A stretch of 18,437 bases of DNA from Promethearchaeota archaeon (GCA_019058015.1 JAHLWH010000080.1:1-18437); one strand, 5' to 3'; positions 1-14,971 are shown, numbered from the stretch's first letter. A program made the numbers and translations. Notes: generated from the sequence alone by a model not told the origin.

Positions 1-979
1 CTGCAACTTTCTCACCTTCTTCAACATCTGATCCACCAACAAAATAAACGGTTGGAGCATTTGGTTTTCGTGAAAACATAGCATCTTGGACCAATCTAGC
101 GACTCTATCAGCCGTAATGTTGCAAAAAGGAATAACAACATTAAACCCTGCATCATAGGCCATATTAATATCAAAAGGTGATGCATATTCATCAGTATCA
201 AAAAAATACAAAATACTTTCCGCCTTCACTTTTTTCTTTATCTTTATCGGGATTATTTCGAGAACAGATGTATTTACTAATTCTTTTACCGAAGAAATAT
301 CATCATGAAAATCTTTAGCAACTTTTTTGATATTTATTTGTTCAATGTCAATTCCAAGATCTTCTGCTAAAGTCGAAATGCCATCAAAATGCCTTTTGTC
401 ACAAATAAATAATGCCTTCAAGTGTTTTTTCTCCATTTTTTTTCCTAATTCAAGAATTCCCATCATCATCCAAGATTCGCGGATTTTATATCTTATCTCA
501 TCTTCCTGCTTATTATATTCTTCGCGTAAATGTTCTCTCCACATCATTAATTGTTGATAATGTGGATCATTTGGATGAACTCCGCCTTTTTCTTTTAATT
601 CCCTAATCTCCGAAGTAAATTTCTCTATAAGTTCTTTACTACCATTCAATCCCGAGGAGATATAATTTAGAGCATTCTCAGGGATGCCTATCATTTTGTA
701 GGGTATCTCATTTTTTCTGAATAAATCTACAAATTCATCCTCATAAAGCAGCTTATCATTTGACCTCATCCCTTTATCCTCTACTACAAAATCAGGATTG
801 TATTTCTTCACCAAATTTTCAGTAAATTCCATATATTCCTTAGAAACAAAAAATATATTTGCAGCAATGGCTTCTTCCCCTGTCGGCTCTTCCAACGACC
901 AATCTATTGGAAATTCACTCTCAACTAATACTAACTTAAGAGTCTTATTTTTTAAAGGTTTTAATTCTAAAGATTGCAT
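1..979 (-). CDS. mtdB: Fusion protein, copy 2 (3' end truncated by the window edge): uncharacterised N-terminal domain plus MtdB-like NAD(P)-dependent methylene-H4MPT dehydrogenase
   Basis: Absent from the ORF track because it runs off the edge. Manual translation from ATG at 979 is open to position 1: MQSLELKPLKNKTLKLVLVESEFPIDW...GGVHPND...RESWMMMGI...FICDKRHFDGI...ILYFFDTDEYASPFDINMAYDAGFNVVIP...VQDAMFSRKP. Colinear paralog of 2664..4346. SD-like AGAGGTAA at 990-997. Confidence 0.88.
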   Translation of the reverse strand, partial: MQSLELKPLKNKTLKLVLVESEFPIDWSLEEPTGEEAIAANIFFVSKEYMEFTENLVKKYNPDFVVEDKGMRSNDKLLYEDEFVDLFRKNEIPYKMIGIPENALNYISSGLNGSKELIEKFTSEIRELKEKGGVHPNDPHYQQLMMWREHLREEYNKQEDEIRYKIRESWMMMGILELGKKMEKKHLKALFICDKRHFDGISTLAEDLGIDIEQINIKKVAKDFHDDISSVKELVNTSVLEIIPIKIKKKVKAESILYFFDTDEYASPFDINMAYDAGFNVVIPFCNITADRVARLVQDAMFSRKPNAPTVYFVGGSDVEEGEKVA

Positions 980-1003
980 TTTTTAAAAATTACCTCTTAT
1001 TTT

Positions 1004-1702
1004 TTAATTAATTTGTGTCGAATGCTGTTCTATTTTTTTTAAAATTTTATTTACATTTATTACTTCAATATTTATTCCTAAATCATCTGCTAGAGATTTT
1101 ATTCCATCAAAATGTTTTTTATCACAGATAAATATTGCTTTTAAATGCTTTTTCTCAATCTTCCTTGCTAAATCAAGAATCCCCATCATCATCCAAGATT
1201 CACGGACTTCATATCTTATCTCATCTTCTTGATTAGAATATTCGCCCTGTAAATAATCCCTCCACACAACCAATTGCTGAAGATTAAAATCGTTAGGATG
1301 AAAACCACCCTTCTCTTTCAAATTCTCAATTTCTGCTCTAATCTCTTTTAGAAGTCCTACATTTCTATCAATCGTTGAAGCAAGATAACCTAAAGCATTC
1401 TCGGAAATATCAACCATTTTATATCGAATGTTATATTCTCTGAATAAATCTACTAAAGCATCATCATATTGTAAATCATCACTTGAGCGCATTCCTTTCT
1501 CTTCCACTATAAAATCTGGTTTGTGATTTTTTACTATATCTTCAATAAACTGCAAATATTTCTTAGACATAATAAATAATTTTGCAGCAATAGATTCTTC
1601 CTTTGAAGATGCTTCCAATGACCAATCTATTGGAAATTCACTCTCTACTAATAACAATTTAAGAGTCTTATTTTTTAATCTTTCTAATTCTAATACTTGC
1701 AT
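1004..1702 (-). CDS. Stand-alone A-domain protein (paralog of the N-terminal domain of the Mtd fusions; possible TraB/TIKI/ChaN-like fold)
   Basis: 232 aa aligning end to end with the first ~220 aa of 2664..4346 (ESEFPI, KPDFIVEE, GGFHPND, RESWMMMGI, FICDKKHFDGI). SD GGAGGT at 1712-1717. Confidence 0.85.
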   Translation of the reverse strand: MQVLELERLKNKTLKLLLVESEFPIDWSLEASSKEESIAAKLFIMSKKYLQFIEDIVKNHKPDFIVEEKGMRSSDDLQYDDALVDLFREYNIRYKMVDISENALGYLASTIDRNVGLLKEIRAEIENLKEKGGFHPNDFNLQQLVVWRDYLQGEYSNQEDEIRYEVRESWMMMGILDLARKIEKKHLKAIFICDKKHFDGIKSLADDLGINIEVINVNKILKKIEQHSTQIN

Positions 1703-1720
1703 TTTTTACTTACCTCCTGT

Positions 1721-2350
1721 TTAAGTTAAAATTAAAATTGAATTTTTTTTCATAATTTTGTTTGTCTCAAGATTAATAACCTTGATATTTTGAGATTCAA
1801 ATAACTTTTTCAATTCAGAAAACAATTCTTTACGGGTAAAATGAATAATACTAATCTCATCGTCATTAATCATCTTAATTATATCTAATACCTTTTTTAT
1901 GATCCATAAAGGTGTTAGCTTTAAATCTAAATGATTTTCTTTGTCTTTTACTTCACTTTTTAAGAGATGAATCCATGAGTTCAGATTTTGAGTCTTTAAT
2001 GACTCTTTCTCGGCGGGATCTGAACAGAGTTTCTCATATTCTCCTTGTAATTCCTCAATTTGTTCTTTTTTTTCTGAGATTTCATTTAATAAATAAATTT
2101 TAGCGTAGTCAGGGATATTAACATAATAATATGGTATCCCAAAATTATCAAAAAATTGTGCTAAAGGAGTCAGGTAAATCTTTTTTAAATCATCATCACT
2201 TAAATCAATCGTAGCAAAATTGAATTTTTGTTTTCTTAAGAGAACCAATAAATTTTCATGTTCTGCGTCAGATAATTCTTTATTATCCTTTTCTATTAGA
2301 TATAAAGAAATTTTTTTATCTTTTATCGGTTTTAATTCCAATACTTCCAT
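1721..2350 (-). CDS. B-type hypothetical protein, copy 2 (divergent paralog of the A domain, with a coiled-coil insert)
   Basis: Start moved to ATG at 2350 (MEVLELKP) to match paralog 4360..5019 (MEVLEIEP); GGGTA lies just upstream. Shared motifs: FATIDL, IPDYAK, KESLKTQNLNSWI. Confidence 0.8.
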   Translation of the reverse strand: MEVLELKPIKDKKISLYLIEKDNKELSDAEHENLLVLLRKQKFNFATIDLSDDDLKKIYLTPLAQFFDNFGIPYYYVNIPDYAKIYLLNEISEKKEQIEELQGEYEKLCSDPAEKESLKTQNLNSWIHLLKSEVKDKENHLDLKLTPLWIIKKVLDIIKMINDDEISIIHFTRKELFSELKKLFESQNIKVINLETNKIMKKNSILILT

Positions 2351-2457
2351 TTTTTTTACCCATTCCAAATTTTTATATATTCTGAAATTTTTTTTTACTA
2401 TTTAATTGATTTAAATGCAATAATTTAATTTATTTGATAAGAGGAATTTTAGACAAC

Positions 2458-2604
2458 TTGACTAATTAATTTATCAACTTAACCATTTTTTTTATCAAAA
2501 ATTAAAAAATCTTCTTTTTAAAACTAATTATAAAATAAATATGACAAAAAAAGTTTGATAAAATTGACAATTTAAATAATCAAGCAAACAATTTTTTTTA
2601 TCAT
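2458..2604. promoter_or_regulatory. Four copies of a putative operator palindrome TTGAYAA-N6-TTRTCAA, arranged as two tandem pairs
   Basis: 2458-2477 TTGACTA-attaat-TTATCAA; 2479-2498 TTAACCA-tttttt-TTATCAA; 2564-2583 TTGACAA-tttaaa-TAATCAA; 2585-2604 CAAACAA-tttttt-TTATCAT (weak). Starts are 21 bp apart within each pair. Confidence 0.65.
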
Positions 2605-2630
2605 TAATTAAAATATGCTTTCTATTAATT

Positions 2631-2651
2631 AAAAATAAAATAAAAAAAAAA
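2631..2651 (-). terminator. Oligo-T archaeal-type terminator candidate downstream of mtd copy 1
   Basis: A-rich run on the plus strand (A10 at 2642-2651), i.e. a T-tract on the minus strand starting 12 nt after the stop at 2664. Confidence 0.5.
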
Positions 2652-2663
2652 GTGAGTTTGAAT

Positions 2664-4346
2664 TTAGTGAGATATTACAATTTTTTTGCCAAATAATATT
2701 TCTTTTGCAATTTCAAAAGCAATGTTATAATCGAATATTTTCTTTCCTTTGGTTTTAGTAGCTTCTCTAAGAATAGAACCTTCAGTTGTCGATTTTAAAT
2801 GGCCTATTCCTAATGCCCCAATTCCAAAAATTCCGGGGTAAATTTCTTCATTATCATGTTTTGGTTTTATACCTTCAATTCCGTACGGCGGAACTAAATT
2901 AATGTCTATTACGATTTTATTTTTTGGTAATTTGCTCATCAATTCTTCTGATAAGATTTGAACTCCTGCAGCTGCTAAAGACCAGATTATATCAGCATCT
3001 TTTACTATTTCAAATTTTTTCTCATCCGTTATTGCGAATTCTCCAATGATTTCAGAAGCGTTTTTTCCTGCCTCTTTAGTTAATTCTTTTGCAAGCTGCT
3101 TTACAGCTTTTTCACTTCCCTTATCCCATGTCTCAACTAAAACTGTTTCACAATTTTGTTTTGCCGCAATTATTGCTGCAATTCGCCCGACAGGGCCAGT
3201 TCCTAATACGACCGCTTTTTTTCCTGAGATATTACTTATCCCGCTTTTCATTGCCGCTTCCAGAGTTTTCGCGACTATTGCCGAAGCCGTAGTGTGAGAT
3301 CCTCGTGGATCTATGATCACAGGGACTTCGAAAGGTGGTACTAAGGAACCCACGACTTTTTTCGCAATTTTTTCACCTTCCGCTACATTCGCCCCACCAA
3401 TGAAAAAACTGGTCGGAGCTTTTGGCTTTCGCGAGAATATCGCATCTTGCACAAGTCTTGGCACTTGTTCAACCTTTACATTACTAACGGGAATAACTAC
3501 ATCAAACCCCGCATCGTATGCCATATTAATATCAAAGGGAGACGCATGCTCATCTGTATCTAAAAAATACACAATTTTTTCTAGACTATCTTTTTTCTTT
3601 ATTTTAACGGGAGCAACTTCCATAATTGATACCTTTACAAATTCTTTTATCGTATTTGGCTTCTCTAAATCTCCAATATTTAAAATATTTTTCTTAACTT
3701 CAAATTTTTGAATTTCTACTCCTAGGTCATCTGTAAGGGTTGTAATACCATCAAAATGCCTTTTATCACAAATAAATAGACATTTTAATTTTTTCTCTTT
3801 TTGTTCTTTTGCCATATCAAGAATCCCCATCATCATCCAAGCTTCACGGATCTTATATCTTATTTCTTCCTCTTGATTTTCGTATTCCACCTGTAAATAT
3901 TCTCTCCACGTTATTAATTGCTGAAAATAATAATCATTGGGATGAAACCCTCCCTTTTCTTTAATCTTTATAATTTCTGCTTTAATTCCCTTTAAAAGTT
4001 CCACGTTTTTGTCTATTGTCGAAGCAAGATATCCAAGTGCGTTCTCATTGATATCAACCATCTTATAAGGTATTTTAAAATCTCTAAATAAATCAACAAA
4101 AGCATCATCATAATGTAATTTATCACTAGAACGCAATCCTTGTTCTTCAACTACAAAATTTGGTTTATGTTTCCGTAATATATTTTCAATAAGTTTTAGA
4201 TAATCTTTTGACATAAAACTGAAATTTAAAGATTGTTCAAGCTGCTCTTTTGTTGGCTCCAACCACCAACCAATTGGAAACTCACTTTCTATTAATATTA
4301 TTTCTAATTTTTTATTTTTTAAAGGGTTTATTTCTAACACTTGCAA
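2664..4346 (-). CDS. mtdB: Fusion protein, copy 1: uncharacterised ~220-aa A domain plus MtdB-like NAD(P)-dependent methylene-tetrahydromethanopterin dehydrogenase
   Basis: The C-terminal ~300 aa carry Mtd motifs SPFDINMAYDAGF, QDAIFSR, FFIGG, LVPPF, DPRGSHTTASA, Rossmann GTGPVG, AAAGVQ and DINLVPPYGIEG. TTG start, with SD GGAGGT (4355-4360) overlapping the upstream TAG stop. Confidence 0.9.
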   Translation of the reverse strand: MQVLEINPLKNKKLEIILIESEFPIGWWLEPTKEQLEQSLNFSFMSKDYLKLIENILRKHKPNFVVEEQGLRSSDKLHYDDAFVDLFRDFKIPYKMVDINENALGYLASTIDKNVELLKGIKAEIIKIKEKGGFHPNDYYFQQLITWREYLQVEYENQEEEIRYKIREAWMMMGILDMAKEQKEKKLKCLFICDKRHFDGITTLTDDLGVEIQKFEVKKNILNIGDLEKPNTIKEFVKVSIMEVAPVKIKKKDSLEKIVYFLDTDEHASPFDINMAYDAGFDVVIPVSNVKVEQVPRLVQDAIFSRKPKAPTSFFIGGANVAEGEKIAKKVVGSLVPPFEVPVIIDPRGSHTTASAIVAKTLEAAMKSGISNISGKKAVVLGTGPVGRIAAIIAAKQNCETVLVETWDKGSEKAVKQLAKELTKEAGKNASEIIGEFAITDEKKFEIVKDADIIWSLAAAGVQILSEELMSKLPKNKIVIDINLVPPYGIEGIKPKHDNEEIYPGIFGIGALGIGHLKSTTEGSILREATKTKGKKIFDYNIAFEIAKEILFGKKIVISH

Positions 4347-4359
4347 TTTTTTTTACCTC

Positions 4360-5019
4360 CTATTTTATGATTTGATTTGAAATTATTACTTTATTCTTAG
4401 CATCAAAAGTTCGATCTGAAACTCCAGTGCTAAAATTATTTATAATAACATTTATTTTGAGTTCTTGAAACAATTTTTGTAATTCAGGAACTAATTCTTC
4501 TGGACTAAAATGTAAAATAATTAAGGAATTTTTCTTATAAGTTCTTGCCCTGTCCAATATTTTTTTAACGATCCATTGAGGCTTAACTTTTAATTTTATA
4601 TATTGTTCTTTATCATTAACTTCCTCTTTTAATAAATCAATCCAAGATTTTAAATTTTGCCCCTTAAATGATTCTTTTCCAGAGGGATCATTGGATAAAC
4701 TTTCATATTCTGATTCTAATTCCTTAATTTGTTCTTTTTTATCGGATATTTCTCCCAATAAATAACCTTTTGCGTATTCGGGAATGTCAATACCGATAAA
4801 TTCGATTGAAAAATCTTCTAAAAATTTCGCTATGGGTGAATTATTTAATTGTTTTAAATTTTTACCCAATAAGTCAATAGTAGCAAAATCAAATGTATAA
4901 TTTTTTAAAAAGTTCTCGAAAATTTTTGCTTTTACGTGCGATATTTTATAATCTTCTTTCTCTATTATATAAAGAAAAATTTTTTTATTTTTTACCGGCT
5001 CGATTTCTAAAACTTCCAT
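4360..5019 (-). CDS. B-type hypothetical protein, copy 1
   Basis: 219 aa, colinear paralog of 1721..2350. Its stop codon overlaps the SD of the downstream mtd fusion (TAGGAGGT), suggesting translational coupling. Confidence 0.82.
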   Translation of the reverse strand: MEVLEIEPVKNKKIFLYIIEKEDYKISHVKAKIFENFLKNYTFDFATIDLLGKNLKQLNNSPIAKFLEDFSIEFIGIDIPEYAKGYLLGEISDKKEQIKELESEYESLSNDPSGKESFKGQNLKSWIDLLKEEVNDKEQYIKLKVKPQWIVKKILDRARTYKKNSLIILHFSPEELVPELQKLFQELKINVIINNFSTGVSDRTFDAKNKVIISNQIIK

Positions 5020-5107
5020 TTAGTCAAGGACCGTTTGTTTAATTATTTAATTATTTTTTATTTTTTATTTTACCCAGTAATTCACCTTAATAATAAATAA
5101 AAATAAT

Positions 5108-5180
5108 TTGATAAAAAGAGTTATCTCTATTTTAACAACTAATATTGTCAAAATATAGAATTGACAATTTCCATTATCAT
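5108..5180. promoter_or_regulatory. Three copies of the putative operator palindrome TTGAYAA-N6-TTRTCAA
   Basis: 5108-5127 TTGATAA-aaagag-TTATCTC; 5132-5151 TTAACAA-ctaata-TTGTCAA; 5161-5180 TTGACAA-tttcca-TTATCAT. Confidence 0.65.
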
Positions 5181-5394
5181 AAGTGATTTATCAACTTATC
5201 TTTATTTTAGCAAGTTATATCTAAAAAGAATTGAAATACATCTTTTTTTCTTTCATTTTTATGTGGTTTTAAAGAAAAAAATTGTCTTTTTAATAACTTG
5301 AATTTTCTTTTTTTTTTTTTAACTAATTTTATTTTCAGTTTTAAAATGAGAATAATTACATTTTGAAGATTTTTGATCAGTAAGATTTTTATTT

Positions 5395-5414
5395 TTGATA
5401 ACTTTATTTGTCAT
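5395..5414. promoter_or_regulatory. Putative operator palindrome upstream of the wHTH-hdrA gene
   Basis: TTGATAA-ctttat-TTGTCAT, ending 110 bp before the ATG at 5525. Confidence 0.6.
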
Positions 5415-5524
5415 AGTGAAAATCATAATTATTTTTTTTAATAATATTTATTTTCGGTTTTCGACAAAGAATTATAATTTTCCAGATAATGATTTGTAAA
5501 AATAATTAAAGGGAGATTAGAAAT

Positions 5525-8056
5525 ATGGATATATATTCAATTTTATCTCATCCATTTAGGAGGAAGATTTTATTACTTCTTGATAAAGAAGGTTATATCT
5601 CTTACACAGAATTGATGGATAGGTTAGGTTTAGAGACTACTGGGCAATTAAATTTTCACCTTAAAAAACTTGGGACTTTAATAAATAAAGATAAAAAATC
5701 CTATTTTCTCACGGAGGACGGAAAACGAGTTATAAATTTAATGAATATTGATAAAAAAATTTTGGCAGGTGAGGATATTGAATATTTGGATAAGGTTGGT
5801 AGTGAGATTAATCGAGTGGGGGTTATTATTTGTAAATGCAATACTGAAATTTCTAATCTTATAAGTATTAATGCACTTGAAAATTATATTAAAAGAATTC
5901 CCAATGTAGTTGCTGTGAAGATTTTTGATAATCTTTGCCAAGAGAAAAATTTAGAAAAGATTACTAAATGGTCTAAAGATAATTATTTGAATAAGATTGT
6001 TATTGCTGCGTGTTCTCCAAAAACTCATTTGCATATATTTGAAAGAATTTTTGATGGAGTTATTGATAAAGTTAATATTGAAATTGCTAATATTAGGGAG
6101 CAATGTTGCTGGGTGCATCTAAAAGAACCTACTTTAGCGTTAAAAAAAGCGCAAATTTTGATTGAGGCAGCGGTTGAACGAGTTGCGCTTCAAAAAGATG
6201 TTCAAGTAAAAACTGTTAAAATTGAAAAAAGTTGTGCCATTTTAGGTGGTGGAATTGCTGGAATGACACTTGCATTGAATTTATCAAGAGCAGGAATTAA
6301 AGTCTATTTAATTGAAAAAACTCCAACATTAGGTGGTAAAATTGCCAGGTGGAGTAAAATTTATGGAATGGGTGATTGTTCAATTTGTCTTATGTCAGAA
6401 ATGATAGGTGAGGTTGTTAAAGAAAAAAATATCGAAATTTTAACTAATACTGAAATAGAAAAAGTATCAGGTGAAGTAGGAAATTTTTCAATTGATTTGG
6501 TTAAAAAACCCCGATATGTTGATGAAAAGAAATGTACTGGATGTAAAAGATGTATTGAAATTTGCAGTATAGAAAAAAGTAATCAATATGAATTTGGATT
6601 AACAGCAAGGAAGTTAATTTATATTCCTTATGTTCAATCTTATCCATATGCTCCAGTGATTGACCAAGAAGATATTGAAACTTGCCGACAATGTAGAATT
6701 TGCGAGCGAGCTTGCAATAATAATGCGATTGATTTGGATCAGAAATTTGAAAAAATAAGGATTAGAGTTGGAACAAAAGTAATTGCAATTGGTGCGGATT
6801 TTTATTCTGAATTAAAACCTTATAACCATAATCCACAAAATGACGTAATTATATCTCCGGAATTTGAACGTATCTTATCAGCGGATGGTCCAACGGAAGG
6901 TAAAATTTTGAAATTATCTGATGGAAAACCACCGAAATCAATCTCAATAATTCAAGGTTTAGGTCCATTTGATTATTTAGCGGAATATTGTGGTACTCTC
7001 GCCATAAAGTATTTAGAATCTATTTATTCACAACTTCCTGATTGTAAAATTAACATATTTTTTGATTTAAATAAAATTAAGAAATCTACTGGATTTATGT
7101 TAGATCCATCTGATGAAAGATTTCATTATTATGAAAATATTGAAATCATAGAGAAAGGAAATAAGAAAATAATAATTTCTGATTCAGAGCAGTATCCCTC
7201 CGATATGATCGTGTTAAATGTCAATTTTGTTCCAAATAAAGATTTAAAAGAACTTCGAAAGACTTTAGATTTTACATTAGACGATCATGGTTTTATGAGT
7301 GAGGAAACGCTGGCATCCGGTATTTTTGGTGTTGGTTCAATTAAAGGTCCATTAGATTATAATTCAGTGATCTCATCTTCCAATGATGTAGCTATTAAAA
7401 TTATTTCATTGTTATCAAATGATTATTTAATTACAGAATTTAGCGGTATCGAAATCAAAGAAGAGAATTGCGGATTGTGTGGTTTATGCATATTATCTTG
7501 TCCTTACAATGCAATCACAATTGAGGCAGATAAAATTGCGATTGATAAATTCAAATGTAAAGGATGCGGAACGTGTGTAAGTGTTTGTCCCACAAATGCA
7601 CTTGACTTAAACATTGATACTACTGAGAAGATACTAAAATCAATTGAGGTATTTTCTAAATTCAATTTACGACCAAAAATAATTGCATTCTGCTGTCGTT
7701 CTTGTGGATATGGTGCAGCCGATGAAGCTGGCTTAAAGAAACTTTCCTATAATCCCAACATCTTTATTATTAAAGTTCCATGCACAGGGCGGGTAGATAC
7801 GAGTTTAATTTTTAAATCTTTCGAATTAGGATTTGATGGAGTAATGATTATTGGTTGCAGAAAAGATTCCTGCCGATATATAAATAGTGTAGATCAAGTA
7901 AGACAAAAAGTTAAACTTTTAAAAGAAGTTTTAGGTCCTATTGCTGAAAATCGAATAATTCGTAAATCATTAAGCGCAGTTGAGGGCAATAAATTTGCAG
8001 AGATTGTAAATTCTTTTTATGAAAGATTATCAGAGGAGATTAAAAATGAAACCTAA
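5525..8056 (+). CDS. hdrA: Winged-HTH / HdrA / MvhD triple fusion protein
   Basis: aa 1-75 form an ArsR-like archaeal wHTH (LSHPFRRKILLLL...SYTELM...TGQLNFHLKKL...YFLTEDG). HdrA motifs: RVGVIICKC, AACSP, NIREQCCWVH, GGGIAG, EKTPTLGG, DCSIC, KKPRYVD, four ferredoxin-type CxxCxxCxxxC motifs, EFER. C-terminal MvhD motifs: FCCRSCGYGAAD, VPCTGRVD, GCRKDSCRY. SD GGGAG at 5511. Confidence 0.92.
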   Translation: MDIYSILSHPFRRKILLLLDKEGYISYTELMDRLGLETTGQLNFHLKKLGTLINKDKKSYFLTEDGKRVINLMNIDKKILAGEDIEYLDKVGSEINRVGVIICKCNTEISNLISINALENYIKRIPNVVAVKIFDNLCQEKNLEKITKWSKDNYLNKIVIAACSPKTHLHIFERIFDGVIDKVNIEIANIREQCCWVHLKEPTLALKKAQILIEAAVERVALQKDVQVKTVKIEKSCAILGGGIAGMTLALNLSRAGIKVYLIEKTPTLGGKIARWSKIYGMGDCSICLMSEMIGEVVKEKNIEILTNTEIEKVSGEVGNFSIDLVKKPRYVDEKKCTGCKRCIEICSIEKSNQYEFGLTARKLIYIPYVQSYPYAPVIDQEDIETCRQCRICERACNNNAIDLDQKFEKIRIRVGTKVIAIGADFYSELKPYNHNPQNDVIISPEFERILSADGPTEGKILKLSDGKPPKSISIIQGLGPFDYLAEYCGTLAIKYLESIYSQLPDCKINIFFDLNKIKKSTGFMLDPSDERFHYYENIEIIEKGNKKIIISDSEQYPSDMIVLNVNFVPNKDLKELRKTLDFTLDDHGFMSEETLASGIFGVGSIKGPLDYNSVISSSNDVAIKIISLLSNDYLITEFSGIEIKEENCGLCGLCILSCPYNAITIEADKIAIDKFKCKGCGTCVSVCPTNALDLNIDTTEKILKSIEVFSKFNLRPKIIAFCCRSCGYGAADEAGLKKLSYNPNIFIIKVPCTGRVDTSLIFKSFELGFDGVMIIGCRKDSCRYINSVDQVRQKVKLLKEVLGPIAENRIIRKSLSAVEGNKFAEIVNSFYERLSEEIKNET

Positions 8057-8807
8057 TTTCTTAATCGAATCATTGACTTCTTGTAGTGGTTGTATCTCAA
8101 CAATGATTTCATTAGATATTTTTCCTCAATTTCTTGATAAGGTAAATCTCGTTCGTTGTTCATTTATGAGAGATGAAAATAATATCTCTGAAAATGATAT
8201 CGCTTTAATTGAGGGATGTGTTTCAGAGGAAAAACAAATCGATATTCTTAAAAATATTCGGAGTAAATCCAAGAGAGTAATTGCTTTAGGAACTTGTGCT
8301 GCTTTTGGTGGAATGCTTGCACTTTCCACTGTAAAAGAAGCAGAACCCATATCCAATTATATAGAAGTAGATGGAATAATTCCTGGATGTCCACCACCTT
8401 CTAAATTATTAGGCAATTGTATTATTAGACTGCTAGAAAATAAAGAGATTATTTTGCCTGAAAAAAATGTTTGTGCAGATTGCGAATTTAGAACTGATAA
8501 TATTGAAAGCAAATTTATGAAACGAATTAATAAACTAATGCCTAGAGAGTATAACTTAGATATCGAAAATAAAGATAAACGTTGCTTTTTAGAAAGAGGA
8601 ATTTTATGTTTGGGACCAATAACTAGAGATGGTTGTGAATCTAAGTGCATTAAATTGAACCTTCCTTGTGATGGGTGCATGGGACCAATTAAAAACGATT
8701 TTACCTCTAATGCCATTAATTTTTTGAGCACTGTAAATCTTGCCAAAGGTCTAAGGAAATATAAAGGAATTTTCTATCGTTATTCAAAACCAAAAACCAA
8801 GAGGTAA
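8046..8807 (+). CDS. mvhG: Group 3 [NiFe]-hydrogenase small subunit (MvhG-like)
   Basis: Motifs SCSGC, IEGCV, ALGTCAAFGG, IPGCPP, VCADC, CFL..GILCLGPITRDGC..KC....PCDGCMGP. Start moved to ATG 8046 (SD GAGGAG at 8033-8038), overlapping the hdrA stop. Confidence 0.9.
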   Translation: MKPNFLIESLTSCSGCISTMISLDIFPQFLDKVNLVRCSFMRDENNISENDIALIEGCVSEEKQIDILKNIRSKSKRVIALGTCAAFGGMLALSTVKEAEPISNYIEVDGIIPGCPPPSKLLGNCIIRLLENKEIILPEKNVCADCEFRTDNIESKFMKRINKLMPREYNLDIENKDKRCFLERGILCLGPITRDGCESKCIKLNLPCDGCMGPIKNDFTSNAINFLSTVNLAKGLRKYKGIFYRYSKPKTKR

Positions 8808-8813
8808 AAAATT

Positions 8814-10118
8814 ATGAAGAAAGTAGTTGATGTATGCACCCGGGTTGAAGGACATGGAAATATAAAAATTTTACTTCAGAAAGATGAAATTACAAGTGTG
8901 AATTTTGATCTTGAGATATTTCGAGCGTTTGAAAATTTATTACTTGATAAGAGGTTGATTGATGTTCCTAGAATTGCATCAAGAATATGTGGATTGTGTC
9001 ACGCATCACAGACAATAACTAGTTGTAAAGCAATAGAGAGTATGTATGAAGTCGAACCCTCCAATCAATCAGTTCTTTTGAGACGACTATTAATGATTGG
9101 TGAGTTGATAAAATCTCATTCTATGCATTTCTTTTTTCAAGCATTTCCCGACCTTTTTGTAATTTTGGATAAACAACCAAAACCACTCTCACTGAATGAA
9201 TTAATCCATTTTGATCCTAAATTAACTTCAAATATGTATGAATTAATAAAAATCGGCAATGAAATTGTGAATTTATTTGGTGGAAGATCTGTTCATTTAA
9301 TAACACCCATTATCGGTGGTGTTTTTTTTTCTCTATCCAAAAAAGAAATAAATATTGCACGGAAATATCTGCAAAATTCTATAAATAATTTAAAATGGAT
9401 TATTGAGCGATTCCAAGAGATATTTTCTCAATTTGATCCTCCTGATGTTTATTCCTTACCAAATCCTGCTTATATGGGAATGCATAATGATGAGAAATAT
9501 GACCGGTATAATGGACTCTTACGATTAGCACAAAATAATAAAATTATCGCAGATTTTCCCGTATATAAACATTCGCAATATTTTGATAAGCAGGAGGATA
9601 TACGTGGAATTGATTTCTATTTAAAAAACGACCAAAACATTCTTGTTGGCCCACTCGCACGATATAAAATAATTAATGATTATGGAATAGATGAACTGCA
9701 ATCCTATATTGGACTTTTTAATAAAGAATGGCAAAATAGTATTTTATTCTCAAACGTTATCAGGCTAATAGAAATGATGTTTGTTTCTTACGAAGGGTTA
9801 TCAATTCTAGACGATACTGAATTGACACAAAAAAATGAAATTAATCCTATTAATTTTTTAAGAAATAATGAAGGACTCGGCATGGTTGAAGCACCTCGAG
9901 GAACTCTCATACACTATTATCATGTAAATAAAAAGAGATTAATTGATAAAGTGAAGCTTTTTATTGCAACTGAAATTAATTTGCCAATTATTGATGAAAT
10001 CCTAACAACACAAAGCCAAAAATTGTATGAAAGAACTGGTGATTTTAATCAGATAAAAAAACAAGCGCAAATGATTATAAGATCGTTTGACCCCTGTATC
10101 TCTTGCGCAACTCATTAA
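8814..10118 (+). CDS. mvhA: Group 3 [NiFe]-hydrogenase large subunit (MvhA-like) with sensory-type features
   Basis: Motifs TRVEGHG, L1 RICGLCHASQ, SHSMHFFF, GGRSVH, VGPLAR, EAPRGTLIH, and L2 RSFDPCISCATH followed directly by the stop. SD GAGGT overlaps the mvhG stop. Confidence 0.92.
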   Translation: MKKVVDVCTRVEGHGNIKILLQKDEITSVNFDLEIFRAFENLLLDKRLIDVPRIASRICGLCHASQTITSCKAIESMYEVEPSNQSVLLRRLLMIGELIKSHSMHFFFQAFPDLFVILDKQPKPLSLNELIHFDPKLTSNMYELIKIGNEIVNLFGGRSVHLITPIIGGVFFSLSKKEINIARKYLQNSINNLKWIIERFQEIFSQFDPPDVYSLPNPAYMGMHNDEKYDRYNGLLRLAQNNKIIADFPVYKHSQYFDKQEDIRGIDFYLKNDQNILVGPLARYKIINDYGIDELQSYIGLFNKEWQNSILFSNVIRLIEMMFVSYEGLSILDDTELTQKNEINPINFLRNNEGLGMVEAPRGTLIHYYHVNKKRLIDKVKLFIATEINLPIIDEILTTQSQKLYERTGDFNQIKKQAQMIIRSFDPCISCATH

Positions 10119-13404: not shown

Positions 13405-14502
13405 ATGAATAACATAGGAATAATCTCAGATAAAGACTTTGAAATGTTAAATGAACCACCTTTTCCCCGACCTTATTTTGAAGCTTTTGAAACACCTTTA
13501 AGAATTAAATGCATTAAGGATTACTTTGAAAAAGAGAAATTATTTGAAGATAATAGGATAAAAAAGATTCCAATAAGAAATCTCGAAAAGATTGAGACAA
13601 TTCTTGAATTAGTTCATACTAAATACCATGTTGATTCAATAAAATATTTTTCAAATTTAGCTTCTGGAAGTGTTGGTGAAACTGTATTCATTACTGAAGA
13701 GACATTTAAATTAGCAAAAAAGGCAATTGAAGGAACAATTACTGCTTTTAATTCCGTCATATCTGGAGAAGTTAATCAATCATTTGCTTTCATAAGACCC
13801 CCGGGTCATCATGCACTAAGAGATGTAGCTTCAGGTCTGTGTATTTTTAATAATATCGCAGTAGGTATTCAATATTTAAGAAAAATAAAAAAAAATGCGA
13901 AAAAATTCGCCATTATTGATATAGATAATCATTATGGAGATGGAATCGCCAAATTTTTTTATGAAGACCCAGAGGTCCTTTATTTTTCAATTCATGAGTA
14001 TGATTTTGATCAAGGGGAACTGGGTTTTATTCATGAGCTTGGAAATAATGAAGGTTTAGGCTATAACATTAATTTTCCAATACCTCCCAAAACTACTGAT
14101 AAGTATTATTTAGAGTTTTTTGATATTTTAGAGGCAGTGTTTTCAGAATTTAAACCTGAAATAATAATTGTTGCCTGCGGATTTGATTGTCACTACACCG
14201 ATCCCATCGGAAATTGTTTGCTTACAGCGAATTCCTACATCAAATTTACTCAAAAATTATTAATACTCGCAAATAATGTATGTAATGGGAAGATCTCATT
14301 TATCCTCGAAGGAGGATATAGCTTAAGTGCATTACCAATATGTTCTTACTCTATAGTTAAAACACTACTAGGTGATATGGTTAATCTACCTTCTCAAGAA
14401 AAAATAGAATTTCCCGAGGATTTAGATATCTCAAAAGTAATTGCTAAAGTAAAAGGGGAATTAAATAATCTATTAAGAGATTATTGGTCAAATATTTCCT
14501 AG
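13405..14502 (+). CDS. Zn-dependent histone deacetylase family protein (HDAC/AcuC/AphA)
   Basis: Motifs RPPGHHA, GLCIFNN, IIDIDNHYGDG, SIH, GFDCHYTDP and LEGGY. The catalytic His pair, Zn ligands and Tyr are all present. Confidence 0.93.
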   Translation: MNNIGIISDKDFEMLNEPPFPRPYFEAFETPLRIKCIKDYFEKEKLFEDNRIKKIPIRNLEKIETILELVHTKYHVDSIKYFSNLASGSVGETVFITEETFKLAKKAIEGTITAFNSVISGEVNQSFAFIRPPGHHALRDVASGLCIFNNIAVGIQYLRKIKKNAKKFAIIDIDNHYGDGIAKFFYEDPEVLYFSIHEYDFDQGELGFIHELGNNEGLGYNINFPIPPKTTDKYYLEFFDILEAVFSEFKPEIIIVACGFDCHYTDPIGNCLLTANSYIKFTQKLLILANNVCNGKISFILEGGYSLSALPICSYSIVKTLLGDMVNLPSQEKIEFPEDLDISKVIAKVKGELNNLLRDYWSNIS

Positions 14503-14584
14503 CACCTATTGATAAAAATAAGAAATTGTAATGCATTGCATCAACTTAATAAAATGAAAAAAATAAAAATAAAATTTTTATTCT

Positions 14585-14971
14585 TTACAATTTCCTTTTT
14601 AATTTTTTTGTATATTCTTGCACGTTAAATAACGCATCACGAGGACCGGCTTGAGGACTAATATAACACATTAATGCAGCGTTGTTATCACCTGTTGGGC
14701 AAATTATAATATGCCCCTTTCCTTTAATATTAGTTGCGATTTTTCGTTCAGGAGTATTCTCAACAACCATAAAATTAATCCCCTGTAATGAAATTCTTCC
14801 AACTCCACTTGTGGCTTGAATTAAGTTCAATATACCCGATAAATCTTGTGATAAATCCCAGTTCTCCGTTTGAAAACTTATTTGATTATTACTACCAATT
14901 AAAGCTACCCCTATTACATTTGGTTCTTCATTTAATAAGTCACTTATAATAGTACTAATCTCACTAGGCAA
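14585..14971 (-). CDS. Asgard (Loki-type) profilin
   Basis: 128 aa with QTENWD, ISLQGINFMVVENTPERKIATNIKGKGH and P.AGPRDALFNVQEY, closely matching Lokiarchaeota profilins as recalled. TTG start. Confidence 0.85.
   Translation of the reverse strand: MPSEISTIISDLLNEEPNVIGVALIGSNNQISFQTENWDLSQDLSGILNLIQATSGVGRISLQGINFMVVENTPERKIATNIKGKGHIIICPTGDNNAALMCYISPQAGPRDALFNVQEYTKKLKRKL

Follow-up and report, generated by a model that had tools for sequence, protein, structure and literature searches.

Which protein, if any, reads the palindrome that recurs on both sides of a pair of paralogous genes in an Asgard archaeal genome, and which genes does it control? The question is raised by an 18,437-nucleotide stretch from a Promethearchaeota archaeon (GCA_019058015.1 JAHLWH010000080.1:1-18437), hereafter the window, which is a complete 18,437-bp contig (C72) of a 283-contig, 3.84-Mb assembly with 29% GC. 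The palindrome, TTGAYAA-N6-TTRTCAA, occurs in two intergenic regions: a 295-bp gap before a short gene (short gene 2), and a 505-bp divergent gap between a second short gene (short gene 1) and a plus-strand gene encoding a winged helix-turn-helix (wHTH) domain fused to HdrA and MvhD (5525..8056, 843 amino acids). An earlier note made from the sequence alone (the original prediction) had named eight copies with a fixed 6-bp spacer and had proposed the HdrA fusion as their reader. The repeated palindrome is confirmed here. Its copies are very probably operators of a dedicated local transcription factor, and the combined evidence of sequence comparison and structure modelling makes the HdrA fusion their probable binder, at a clearly lower level of confidence.

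Seven of the eight copies were recovered when up to two mismatches were allowed, namely those starting at 2458, 2564, 5132, 5161, and 5395 with one mismatch and those at 2479 and 5108 with two. The eighth, at 2585, had already been called weak; it has four mismatches, falls outside this set, and is the counterpart of the 2479 copy in a duplication, a 56-nt direct repeat (2455-2510 and 2561-2616, 106 bp apart) with 79% identity. The whole window holds nine matches, including two inside coding sequence (7542 and 16266), compared with 1.63 (standard deviation 1.30, largest 7) in whole-window dinucleotide shuffles, none of which (0 of 200) reached nine. A lack of enrichment over an AT-rich background had been named as the outcome that would speak against the motif. 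The AT-matched control, consisting of 2000 dinucleotide shuffles of the two intergenic regions alone (GC 13.9% and 17.8%), gave the opposite result: seven matches at up to two mismatches against a shuffle mean of 0.144 (largest 2) and five at up to one mismatch against a mean of 0.013, with no shuffle of the 2000 reaching seven or five, respectively. Within the two regions, the N6 spacing accounts for seven matches and each of the remaining spacings from N0 to N15 for zero to two. The words described as shared by the two regions are present, ATTTATCAACTTA at 2469 and 5186 and AATTGACAATTT at 2562 and 5159, and the half-sites near 14509 and 15010 stand alone, as had been reported. The proposed 21-bp phasing holds for the pairs 2458/2479 and 2564/2585, whereas the copies of the second region are spaced by 24 and 29 bp instead.

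Comparison with relatives places the palindrome in promoters. The main targets appear to be two minus-strand operons that the original prediction had not mentioned, each headed by a short gene: operon 1 (2664..5019), in which short gene 1 (4360-5019, 219 amino acids) is followed by a long gene (2664-4346, 560 amino acids), and operon 2 (2..2350), headed by short gene 2 (1721-2350). Of 41 related genomes, 22 encode homologues of the 219-residue short protein. When 450 bp of upstream DNA was taken from each of 30 short-gene loci, the N6 dyad had 61 matches, compared with 2-17 for each other spacing from N0 to N15, with one copy beginning 105-130 nt ahead of the ATG in most of these loci. Aligned without gaps, 16 promoters representing about a dozen genera read TTGAyAA-N6-TTgTCAA, 17 nt, TTCTTaTCAAATT, one base, and TTTatATT (alignment columns 53-60), followed by cTTAGa (columns 79-85) about 26 nt after the centre of the octamer, a GAGGTG-type ribosome site, and the ATG. 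The half-site letters are conserved, and the letters of the 6-bp spacer vary freely. The octamer and the downstream motif thus stand in the archaeal order of B recognition element (BRE)/TATA octamer plus initiator. In archaeal promoters, the TATA box is centred about 26 nt before the transcription start, with the BRE directly upstream of it; because of this geometry, the octamer is taken as the TATA box and cTTAGa as the initiator. Relative to a start placed in this way, the full dyad would span about -77 to -58, and a third half-site, covering about -40 to -34, would overlie the BRE.

In the window, the conserved cores are the dyad 5132-5151 with the half-site 5108-5114 and the dyad 2458-2477 with the half-site 2434-2440. 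Dyad 1 of the short-gene-1 promoter (5132..5151; TTGACAAtattagTTGTTAA on the gene strand) starts 132 nt before the ATG and is homologous to the dyad at -111 to -130 in the 16 aligned promoters of other loci. The third half-site (5108..5114, minus strand; TTATCAA on the gene strand) follows 17 nt past dyad 1 and ends 4 nt before the octamer TTTTTATT (5096..5103, minus strand), which holds the TATA position by homology with the 16-promoter alignment and would place the transcription start near 5072-5078. The copy at 5108-5127 had been listed as a dyad in its own right; its conserved part is the single half-site beside the TATA box. Dyad 1 of the short-gene-2 promoter (2458..2477) starts 127 nt before the ATG at 2350, a start placed from homologues beginning MEVLEL. 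Its third half-site (2434..2440, minus strand) is of the same kind, again TTATCAA on the gene strand and 17 nt past the dyad, and had been missing from the earlier list; the presumed TATA-position octamer there is ATTAAATT (2422..2429, minus strand; the L023 row in alignment columns 53-60).

The gap between dyad and third half-site is strongly constrained. When gaps from 5 to 30 were scanned on the short-gene side, a gap of exactly 17 gave 11 matches in 23 loci and the only other gap found was 29 (2 matches); on the hdrA side, a gap of exactly 14 gave 7 matches in 31 loci, with 22 as the only other (2 matches). The conserved geometry is therefore a dyad plus one half-site whose distance from the beginning of the dyad's proximal half is 24 bp before the short genes and 21 bp before hdrA, and not the pair of dyads 21 bp apart, which is limited to this genus. 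The copies at 5161, 2479, and 2564 are extras, kept in most or all of the loci shown for this genus. The upstream dyad 5161..5180, 29 bp from dyad 1, is kept in three of four such loci (L001-L003, not L004), and a lone half-site (5188..5194) lies farther out within the shared word ATTTATCAACTTA. Before short gene 2, the genus (L023-L026) retains an extra dyad with two mismatches (2479..2498), offset from dyad 1 by 21 bp. It also retains a distal module (2555..2604), composed of a half-site (2555-2561), a dyad (2564-2583), and the weak copy (2585-2604), which is a diverged duplicate of 2455-2510 placed 106 bp farther upstream.

The same dyad accompanies the wHTH-hdrA gene. The wHTH-HdrA fusion is the divergent neighbour in 18 of the 30 short-gene loci, and the 41 related genomes comprise 22 with both genes, 17 with neither, two with the fusion alone (63% and 66% complete), and none with the short gene alone. 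On the hdrA side, the conserved dyad takes the form TTGAYAA-N6-TTRTCAT, and the half-site that often comes after it is a direct one; in the window it is TTGATAActttatTTGTCAT (5395..5414), starting 130 nt before the ATG at 5525, and homologous dyads precede wHTH-hdrA in other genera and families. That this site would permit autoregulation, as the original prediction had suggested, is plausible, the dyad lying in the wHTH-hdrA gene's own promoter both here and elsewhere.

In a phylum sample of 301 genomes, the first 130 residues of the fusion were matched in 79, and matches covering the wHTH plus the start of HdrA came from families f1, f5, f6, f11, f16, f20, and f23. In 20 distant loci, the exact core GAYAA-N6-TTRTC was matched 15 times in 12 loci, at most 300 bp from the ATG, compared with one match for all other spacings from N0 to N15 together. 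Across 64 wHTH-hdrA loci of nine families, the exact core occurs 70 times in 94.6 kb of upstream DNA, each other spacing zero to three times, and the core only once in 74.9 kb of hdrA coding DNA. Loci with the core dyad number 34 of 40 in f1, 3 of 3 in f4, 3 of 3 in f23, 3 of 4 in f11, 5 of 6 in f16, and 1 of 1 in f5, and symmetry and N6 spacing are kept across families whose upstream DNA ranges from 14 to 49% GC. In f16 and f11, where this DNA has about 40% GC, the dyad precedes the ATG by 57-63 or 144 nt. No short-gene match was found in these two families within the roughly 2 kb fetched upstream of hdrA; some 5 kb downstream, in the same orientation and operon, mvhA is followed by a long gene carrying the MtdA-like part, which suggests that the functional link between the two gene sets is old. 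Where hdrA had no dyad directly upstream, a same-strand FrhB-like gene came first; the prediction, set beforehand, that a dyad would then stand before this gene held in five of seven loci, and in the four whose start could be placed the distance to it was about 85-93 nt. No dyad was seen within 300 bp upstream of the six best HdrA matches that lack the wHTH. Ten loci encoding the N-terminal domain shared by the short and long genes, in genomes lacking the fusion (f12, f17, and four f1), have one core dyad in total, 1.7 kb from the gene. Conservation upstream of orthologs, proposed earlier as a check, is thus borne out, with dyads accompanying the wHTH-HdrA gene across families, and the co-occurrence of this gene with sites before itself and before linked genes is the arrangement known from regulators of the RbkR and PutA type.

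Lineage-specific variation was seen in the f4 loci (L014, L020, L055-L057). Their promoters are GC-richer, the outer bases of the half-sites are changed (AAGACAA, GAGACAA), two direct half-sites stand 21 bp apart before hdrA, and the recognition helix reads TG(I/K)LNFHL instead of TGQLNFHL. Among the families, the two outer operator bases are TT in f1, f23, and f16 and AA or AG in f4 and f11, and the third residue of TGxLN is Q, L, K, or I. The changes in half-site and recognition helix possibly represent co-variation.

Within the genome, the operator is nearly private to this locus. At up to one mismatch, the whole genome holds 19 copies, five of them in the two window regions, and genome-wide counts show no enrichment of N6 over other spacings. 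A weight matrix whose 13 source loci all belong to other genera placed the window sites at ranks 1, 3, 5, 6, and 15 genome-wide, and the only segments with more than one match were the two regions of the window. In the 612,812 bp of intergenic DNA searched, matches outside the contig stayed at chance level: at 12 bits or more there were 7 where 12.9 were expected, and at 17 bits or more 2 where 0.40 were expected. The genome-wide regulon that the earlier note had hoped to define by motif search therefore does not appear. Five near-complete relatives behave similarly: their total counts are about those of a reversed-pattern control, and the locus is conspicuous for its perfect or near-perfect copies. 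Lone high-scoring sites at C210:4045, C266:337, C6:4697, C181:8382, and C209:21024 were considered as further targets and rejected, their neighbours being unrelated genes. The C209 site is identical in a relative of the same genus, which is uninformative there because the whole intergenic region is about 95% identical. The only two perfect 14/14 dyads in the genome (G000) are among these lone sites, at C210:4045-4064, about 86-105 nt before a 295-residue open reading frame (ORF) of no assigned function, and at C266:337-356, downstream of a TFB-like gene; two such dyads against 0.40 expected at this score are not significant.

The candidate reader is an ArsR-like wHTH at residues 1-80 of the fusion (5525..5764, plus strand), which is, as had been stated, the sole helix-turn-helix match among 17 scanned ORFs of at least 120 amino acids in the window. 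Pfam DUF7347 fits residues 2-71 (E 1.2e-11, 45.2 bits against a cut-off of 27.6), and HTH_24 narrowly passes its cut-off (22.4 against 21.9 bits); the curated ArsR-type family HTH_20 falls below its own (19.3 against 27 bits), so the domain does not qualify as a member. The nearest sequence in the PDB is 1y0u, a putative ArsR (E 0.0012). An AlphaFold2 model of residues 1-95 (mean predicted local distance difference test score, pLDDT, 87.5) has the order alpha1-alpha2-alpha3-alphaR-wing-alpha5, with helices at 3-8, 10-22, 27-34, 39-52, and 64-80 and strands at 53-56 and 59-62, which is the fold order of ArsR/SmtB proteins. The top Foldseek rows are all DNA-binding regulators of ArsR/SmtB type (probability 1.00, template modelling (TM) scores 0.59-0.73), comprising CadC (1u2w, E 1.1e-3, TM 0.66), an ArsR-family protein, NolR, QsrR, YodB (5hs9, TM 0.73), HlyU, and SmtB, with two DNA complexes included, among them that of NolR (4omy). 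Families sharing only about 40% identity retain both the wing and the predicted recognition helix, TGxLN(F/Y)HLKKL, which are conserved as well as the enzyme core. A homodimer model of residues 1-95 scored 0.62 against 0.00 for the best of three controls, a mark reached by 20 of 30 solved one-chain pairs and by 1 of 23 solved single chains. The runs share at least 90% of contacts (pLDDT 86), and the modelled interface is formed by residues 1-13 and 68-87, i.e., alpha1 and alpha5. Such a dimer, as modelled, would present two recognition helices in agreement with the 7-6-7 dyad.

The DNA-binding domain is a stable part of the enzyme. Uncut matches above 38% identity run from residues 1-2, mostly in open frames of about 840-900 amino acids, and full fusions were found in families f1, f3, f4, f5, f6, f11, f16, f20, and f23, so that enzyme and DNA-binding domain form one chain in all nine. 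In the window protein, residues 97-837 match the NCBIfam model HdrA2 (NF040770, E 2.9e-177) at 591 bits, far below the cut-off of 1100 for membership, and residues 719-836 match Pfam FlpD, in addition to Fer4 and FAD-binding families. A second fusion-like protein of 710 residues is encoded elsewhere in the genome (C204:15422-17551), with an N-terminal DUF7347 wHTH and a large uncharacterised body, and wHTH-enzyme-like fusions may be a habit of this lineage. The short protein was also considered as the regulator and rejected, no DNA-binding fold being recognised in it. It matches no Pfam or NCBIfam family, and a PDB profile search gave nothing below E 0.07. AlphaFold2 models it (pLDDT 84) as an alpha/beta domain that includes a long helical hairpin. 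Foldseek returned nothing for this model at E up to 0.001, and the best VIA-align rows (Z 8.6; coiled coils and a CbiL-type half domain) score as common arrangements do.

Taken together, these results favour a model in which operators occupy three promoters, two on the minus strand before the operons of a short gene and an MtdA-like gene and one on the plus strand before wHTH-hdrA-mvhD, mvhG, and mvhA. The ArsR-like winged helix of the HdrA-MvhD fusion would bind these dyads as a dimer, formed through the wHTH and probably also through HdrA itself; the HdrA of methanogens dimerises through HdrA. A flavoprotein subunit of a hydrogenase would in this way regulate its own operon plus the two operons of a likely metabolic partner. 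We regard this full reading, operators and HdrA-fusion binder together, as fairly likely. If the fusion is the binder, repression would be slightly the more probable sign of regulation, because ArsR-type proteins are mostly repressors. The half-site on the BRE of the short-gene promoters would let the bound protein compete with transcription factor B (TFB), and the f16 dyad, very near the ATG, should cover the core promoter. On the other side, sites upstream of the BRE often activate transcription in archaea, and sites upstream of or abutting the BRE suit both activators and repressors. Repression may be relieved by a signal through the enzyme part, for example its redox state, H2 sensed via MvhAG, or assembly with a partner. 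A farther-reaching reading, rated as less likely than not, is that the HdrA-Mvh module of many Asgard archaea is itself a transcription factor. The dimeric flavoprotein would in this case sit on its operators by two winged helices and would leave or bind them depending on H2, on how oxidised its flavin and iron-sulfur centres are, or on assembly with the MtdA-like partner, and would link hydrogen metabolism to one-carbon (C1) metabolism directly from enzyme to promoter, with no separate sensor.

Several observations weigh against the HdrA fusion as the reader. Genome G129 keeps the module, with a one-mismatch dyad (ATGACAAaaaattTTGTCAA), 17 nt, CTTATCA, and the TATA box TTTTAAATTT, in front of an operon of a selenocysteine-type hdrA paralogue, a short gene, and a long gene, and no fusion was detected in it: its best HdrA match is 38% identical and begins at residue 97, no MvhA orthologue was found (best 25%), and neither was a close wHTH (38% over 66 residues). 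The assembly is 99% complete by markers and comprises 320 contigs; either the fusion region is unassembled or another protein reads the site, and the genome counts as a counterexample as it stands. Family f20 has the fusion and only weak dyad-like sites, the exact core being absent from all five of its loci; it is also absent from the single loci of f6 and f3, the latter having a two-mismatch copy at -108. The genomes are related, so the locus counts overstate their independence. Dimers of ArsR type are already among solved structures, and the dimer score may therefore show likeness only and not binding. In G009, a gene of Lrp/AsnC type adjoins hdrA (L049, G009:C151, ORF 629-1054), lying between wHTH-hdrA and a truncated short gene. 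Finally, the winged helix of BamF is described as a protein interface in an HdrA-type complex (bioRxiv 10.64898/2026.04.10.717634).

The alternative best able to accommodate these points is that the operators are real and read by an unlinked factor of Lrp/AsnC, TrmB, or another ArsR type, with the wHTH of HdrA acting as a structural or protein-contact module. It would explain the operator kept in G129 with no fusion found and would give a role to the Lrp/AsnC-type ORF of G009 or to the other DUF7347/ArsR-like proteins that the genome encodes, and the BamF winged helix offers it a parallel. However, the dyad tracks the wHTH-hdrA promoter through nine families with differing neighbours and GC content, and it is missing where HdrA lacks the wHTH and before N-domain genes in fusion-free genomes. 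No other candidate lies in conserved synteny, the Lrp/AsnC gene having been seen in one locus only, and the conservation of the recognition helix and wing equals that of the enzyme core. We consider an unlinked reader rather unlikely on this evidence. The claim of the fusion's wHTH as reader thus stands in part, upheld by sites conserved in linkage with its gene, the ArsR-like fold, and the modelled dimer, and weakened by G129 and f20.

A further possibility is that the repeats are relics of promoter and gene duplication, or a basal BRE-like promoter element, and not regulator sites at all. The two intergenic regions do precede paralogous genes and align with each other, region 1 contains the 56-nt internal duplication, and the half-site that is conserved best lies directly beside the TATA box, at the position bound by TFB. 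Against this, the half-sites are kept around a freely varying spacer, and symmetry and N6 are maintained over upstream DNA of such different composition. The same dyad also stands before unrelated first genes (hdrA, the FrhB-like gene, and the selenocysteine-type hdrA paralogue), and it is no general promoter feature, intergenic matches elsewhere being at chance level. This explanation is highly improbable. Chance clustering of an AT-rich word in AT-rich DNA can practically be dismissed: the regions are 14-18% GC and TTGATAA is common in the window (31 copies against 16.4 expected), but the AT-matched shuffles, the N6 specificity, and the conservation across genera refute it.

The closest precedent for the HdrA fusion as operator-binding enzyme is RbkR, an archaeal riboflavin kinase fused to a wHTH, for which operators were predicted by comparative genomics and binding, control by ligands (CTP, FMN), and the structure of a DNA complex were then demonstrated (Rodionova et al. 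2017, PMC5397151). The two cases have in common an enzyme and a wHTH in one archaeal polypeptide, predicted operators before the own gene and linked genes, and operator letters that differ by lineage (PMC5397151). They differ in that RbkR is a small kinase and the protein here a large flavin/iron-sulfur hydrogenase subunit, whose binding is predicted. The free-standing ArsR/SmtB repressors (CadC 1u2w, NolR 4omy/4omz, SmtB 8qkf, YodB 5hs9, and the putative ArsR 1y0u) share the fold order, the alpha1/alpha5 dimer (modelled here), and imperfect inverted-repeat operators in their own promoters; they are proteins of about 100 residues with metal- or thiol-sensing sites, whereas about 750 residues of HdrA-MvhD are attached to the present domain.

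PutA of Escherichia coli and Salmonella, together with other trigger enzymes, comes closest in the proposed mechanism, which we regard as the most likely one here. In this flavoenzyme the DNA-binding domain is N-terminal, the protein represses the divergent operon to which it belongs, and the redox state of its flavin chooses between DNA binding and enzyme work. PutA is bacterial and uses a ribbon-helix-helix domain, and a corresponding redox switch in the HdrA fusion is proposed only by analogy. MsvR of methanogens and SurR of Pyrococcus furiosus are redox-responsive wHTH proteins that bind palindromes at or near the BRE/TATA in divergent promoters, autoregulate, and control redox or hydrogenase genes. 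Both are separate regulators instead of enzyme parts, and their motifs, TTCG-N7-9-CGAA and GTT-N3-AAC, differ from TTGAYAA-N6-TTRTCAA. HoxBC, the H2-sensing regulatory [NiFe] hydrogenase that works with HoxJ/HoxA, likewise places a hydrogenase in the service of gene control, as proposed here, but signals through a separate kinase and response regulator, whereas the DNA-binding domain would here be on the hydrogenase module itself. With MvhAGD-HdrABC and HdrA2, the locus shares the HdrA2 and MvhD (FlpD) matches and the Mvh-type small- and large-subunit genes that follow; it differs in its score far below the HdrA2 cut-off and in that no HdrB or HdrC family was found among the ORFs of the window. 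As far as the full-text literature searched shows, the HdrA enzymes described have no N-terminal DNA-binding domain, and the search, whose scope excluded subscription journals and supplements, turned up no account of an HdrA that binds DNA or of the present operator. A term search of PMC9012536, in the text available, found no mention of 'helix-turn-helix', 'DNA-binding', or 'winged'.

If the HdrA fusion does bind these sites, an electron-bifurcating-type flavoprotein of a hydrogenase complex would have a second role in regulating both its own operon and a conserved partner operon that encodes an MtdA-like C1 dehydrogenase with an unassigned extra domain. This would add a new example to the enzymes that act as transcription factors, one that belongs to hydrogen metabolism. 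Hydrogen metabolism is central to ideas on the syntrophic origin of eukaryotes. The linkage also hints at a working partner of the HdrA/Mvh module, for which the window provides no HdrBC. With an operator that is a short, well-defined sequence almost confined to this locus, a 95-residue domain and a 20-bp probe would make the reading directly testable. The arrangement of dyad, N17, half-site, TATA box, and initiator is one of few concrete promoter layouts for Asgard archaea.

The presumed target genes themselves form an array of five paralogous ORFs on the minus strand (2-5019). All five share an N-terminal domain of about 200 residues starting M(E/Q)VLE.KP.KNK, which matched no Pfam or NCBIfam family and is present in 85 of the 301 genomes of the phylum sample. 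They comprise the two short ORFs, which are 49% identical to each other, one ORF consisting of the N-domain only, and two fused to an MtdA-like methylene-tetrahydromethanopterin dehydrogenase part (Pfam Mpt_N), with longer paralogues lying downstream of each short ORF. The long gene of operon 1 carries this fusion (Mpt_N, PF09176, E 6.2e-26), and its short-then-long gene order is seen again in relatives. Operon 2 contains, after short gene 2, the N-domain-only ORF (1004-1702) and a long gene (2-979) cut off by the contig end. An Rfam scan of 2300-5600 gave no match at E up to 1.

On the plus strand, the fusion gene is followed in the same direction by genes for a [NiFe] hydrogenase small subunit (8019-8807, Pfam Oxidored_q6) and large subunit (8814-10118, NiFeSe_Hases). 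By their listed coordinates, the last 38 nt of the fusion ORF (8019-8056) are also the first of the small-subunit ORF, which suggests coupled translation or a later true start of the small subunit. The large subunit is short (434 amino acids), and its ORF stops directly after ...DPCISCATH, so it lacks a C-terminal extension of the type removed by a maturation protease; large subunits of this kind are typical of sensory hydrogenases.

Among the HdrA paralogues of related genomes, some carry two to four in-frame TGA codons, one of them reading ...YICR-TGA-GVN... (L116, G129:C120 1700-3740, among others), and are probably selenocysteine forms. Such a paralogue adjoins a dyad in G129, G020, and several genomes of genus g11 and may be a further target. 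Elsewhere in the window, a minus-strand ORF of 128 amino acids (14585-14971), which has no Pfam match, adjoins a gene of the histone-deacetylase family (13405-14502) and, by an eye comparison that we take as presumptive, may resemble the Asgard profilins.

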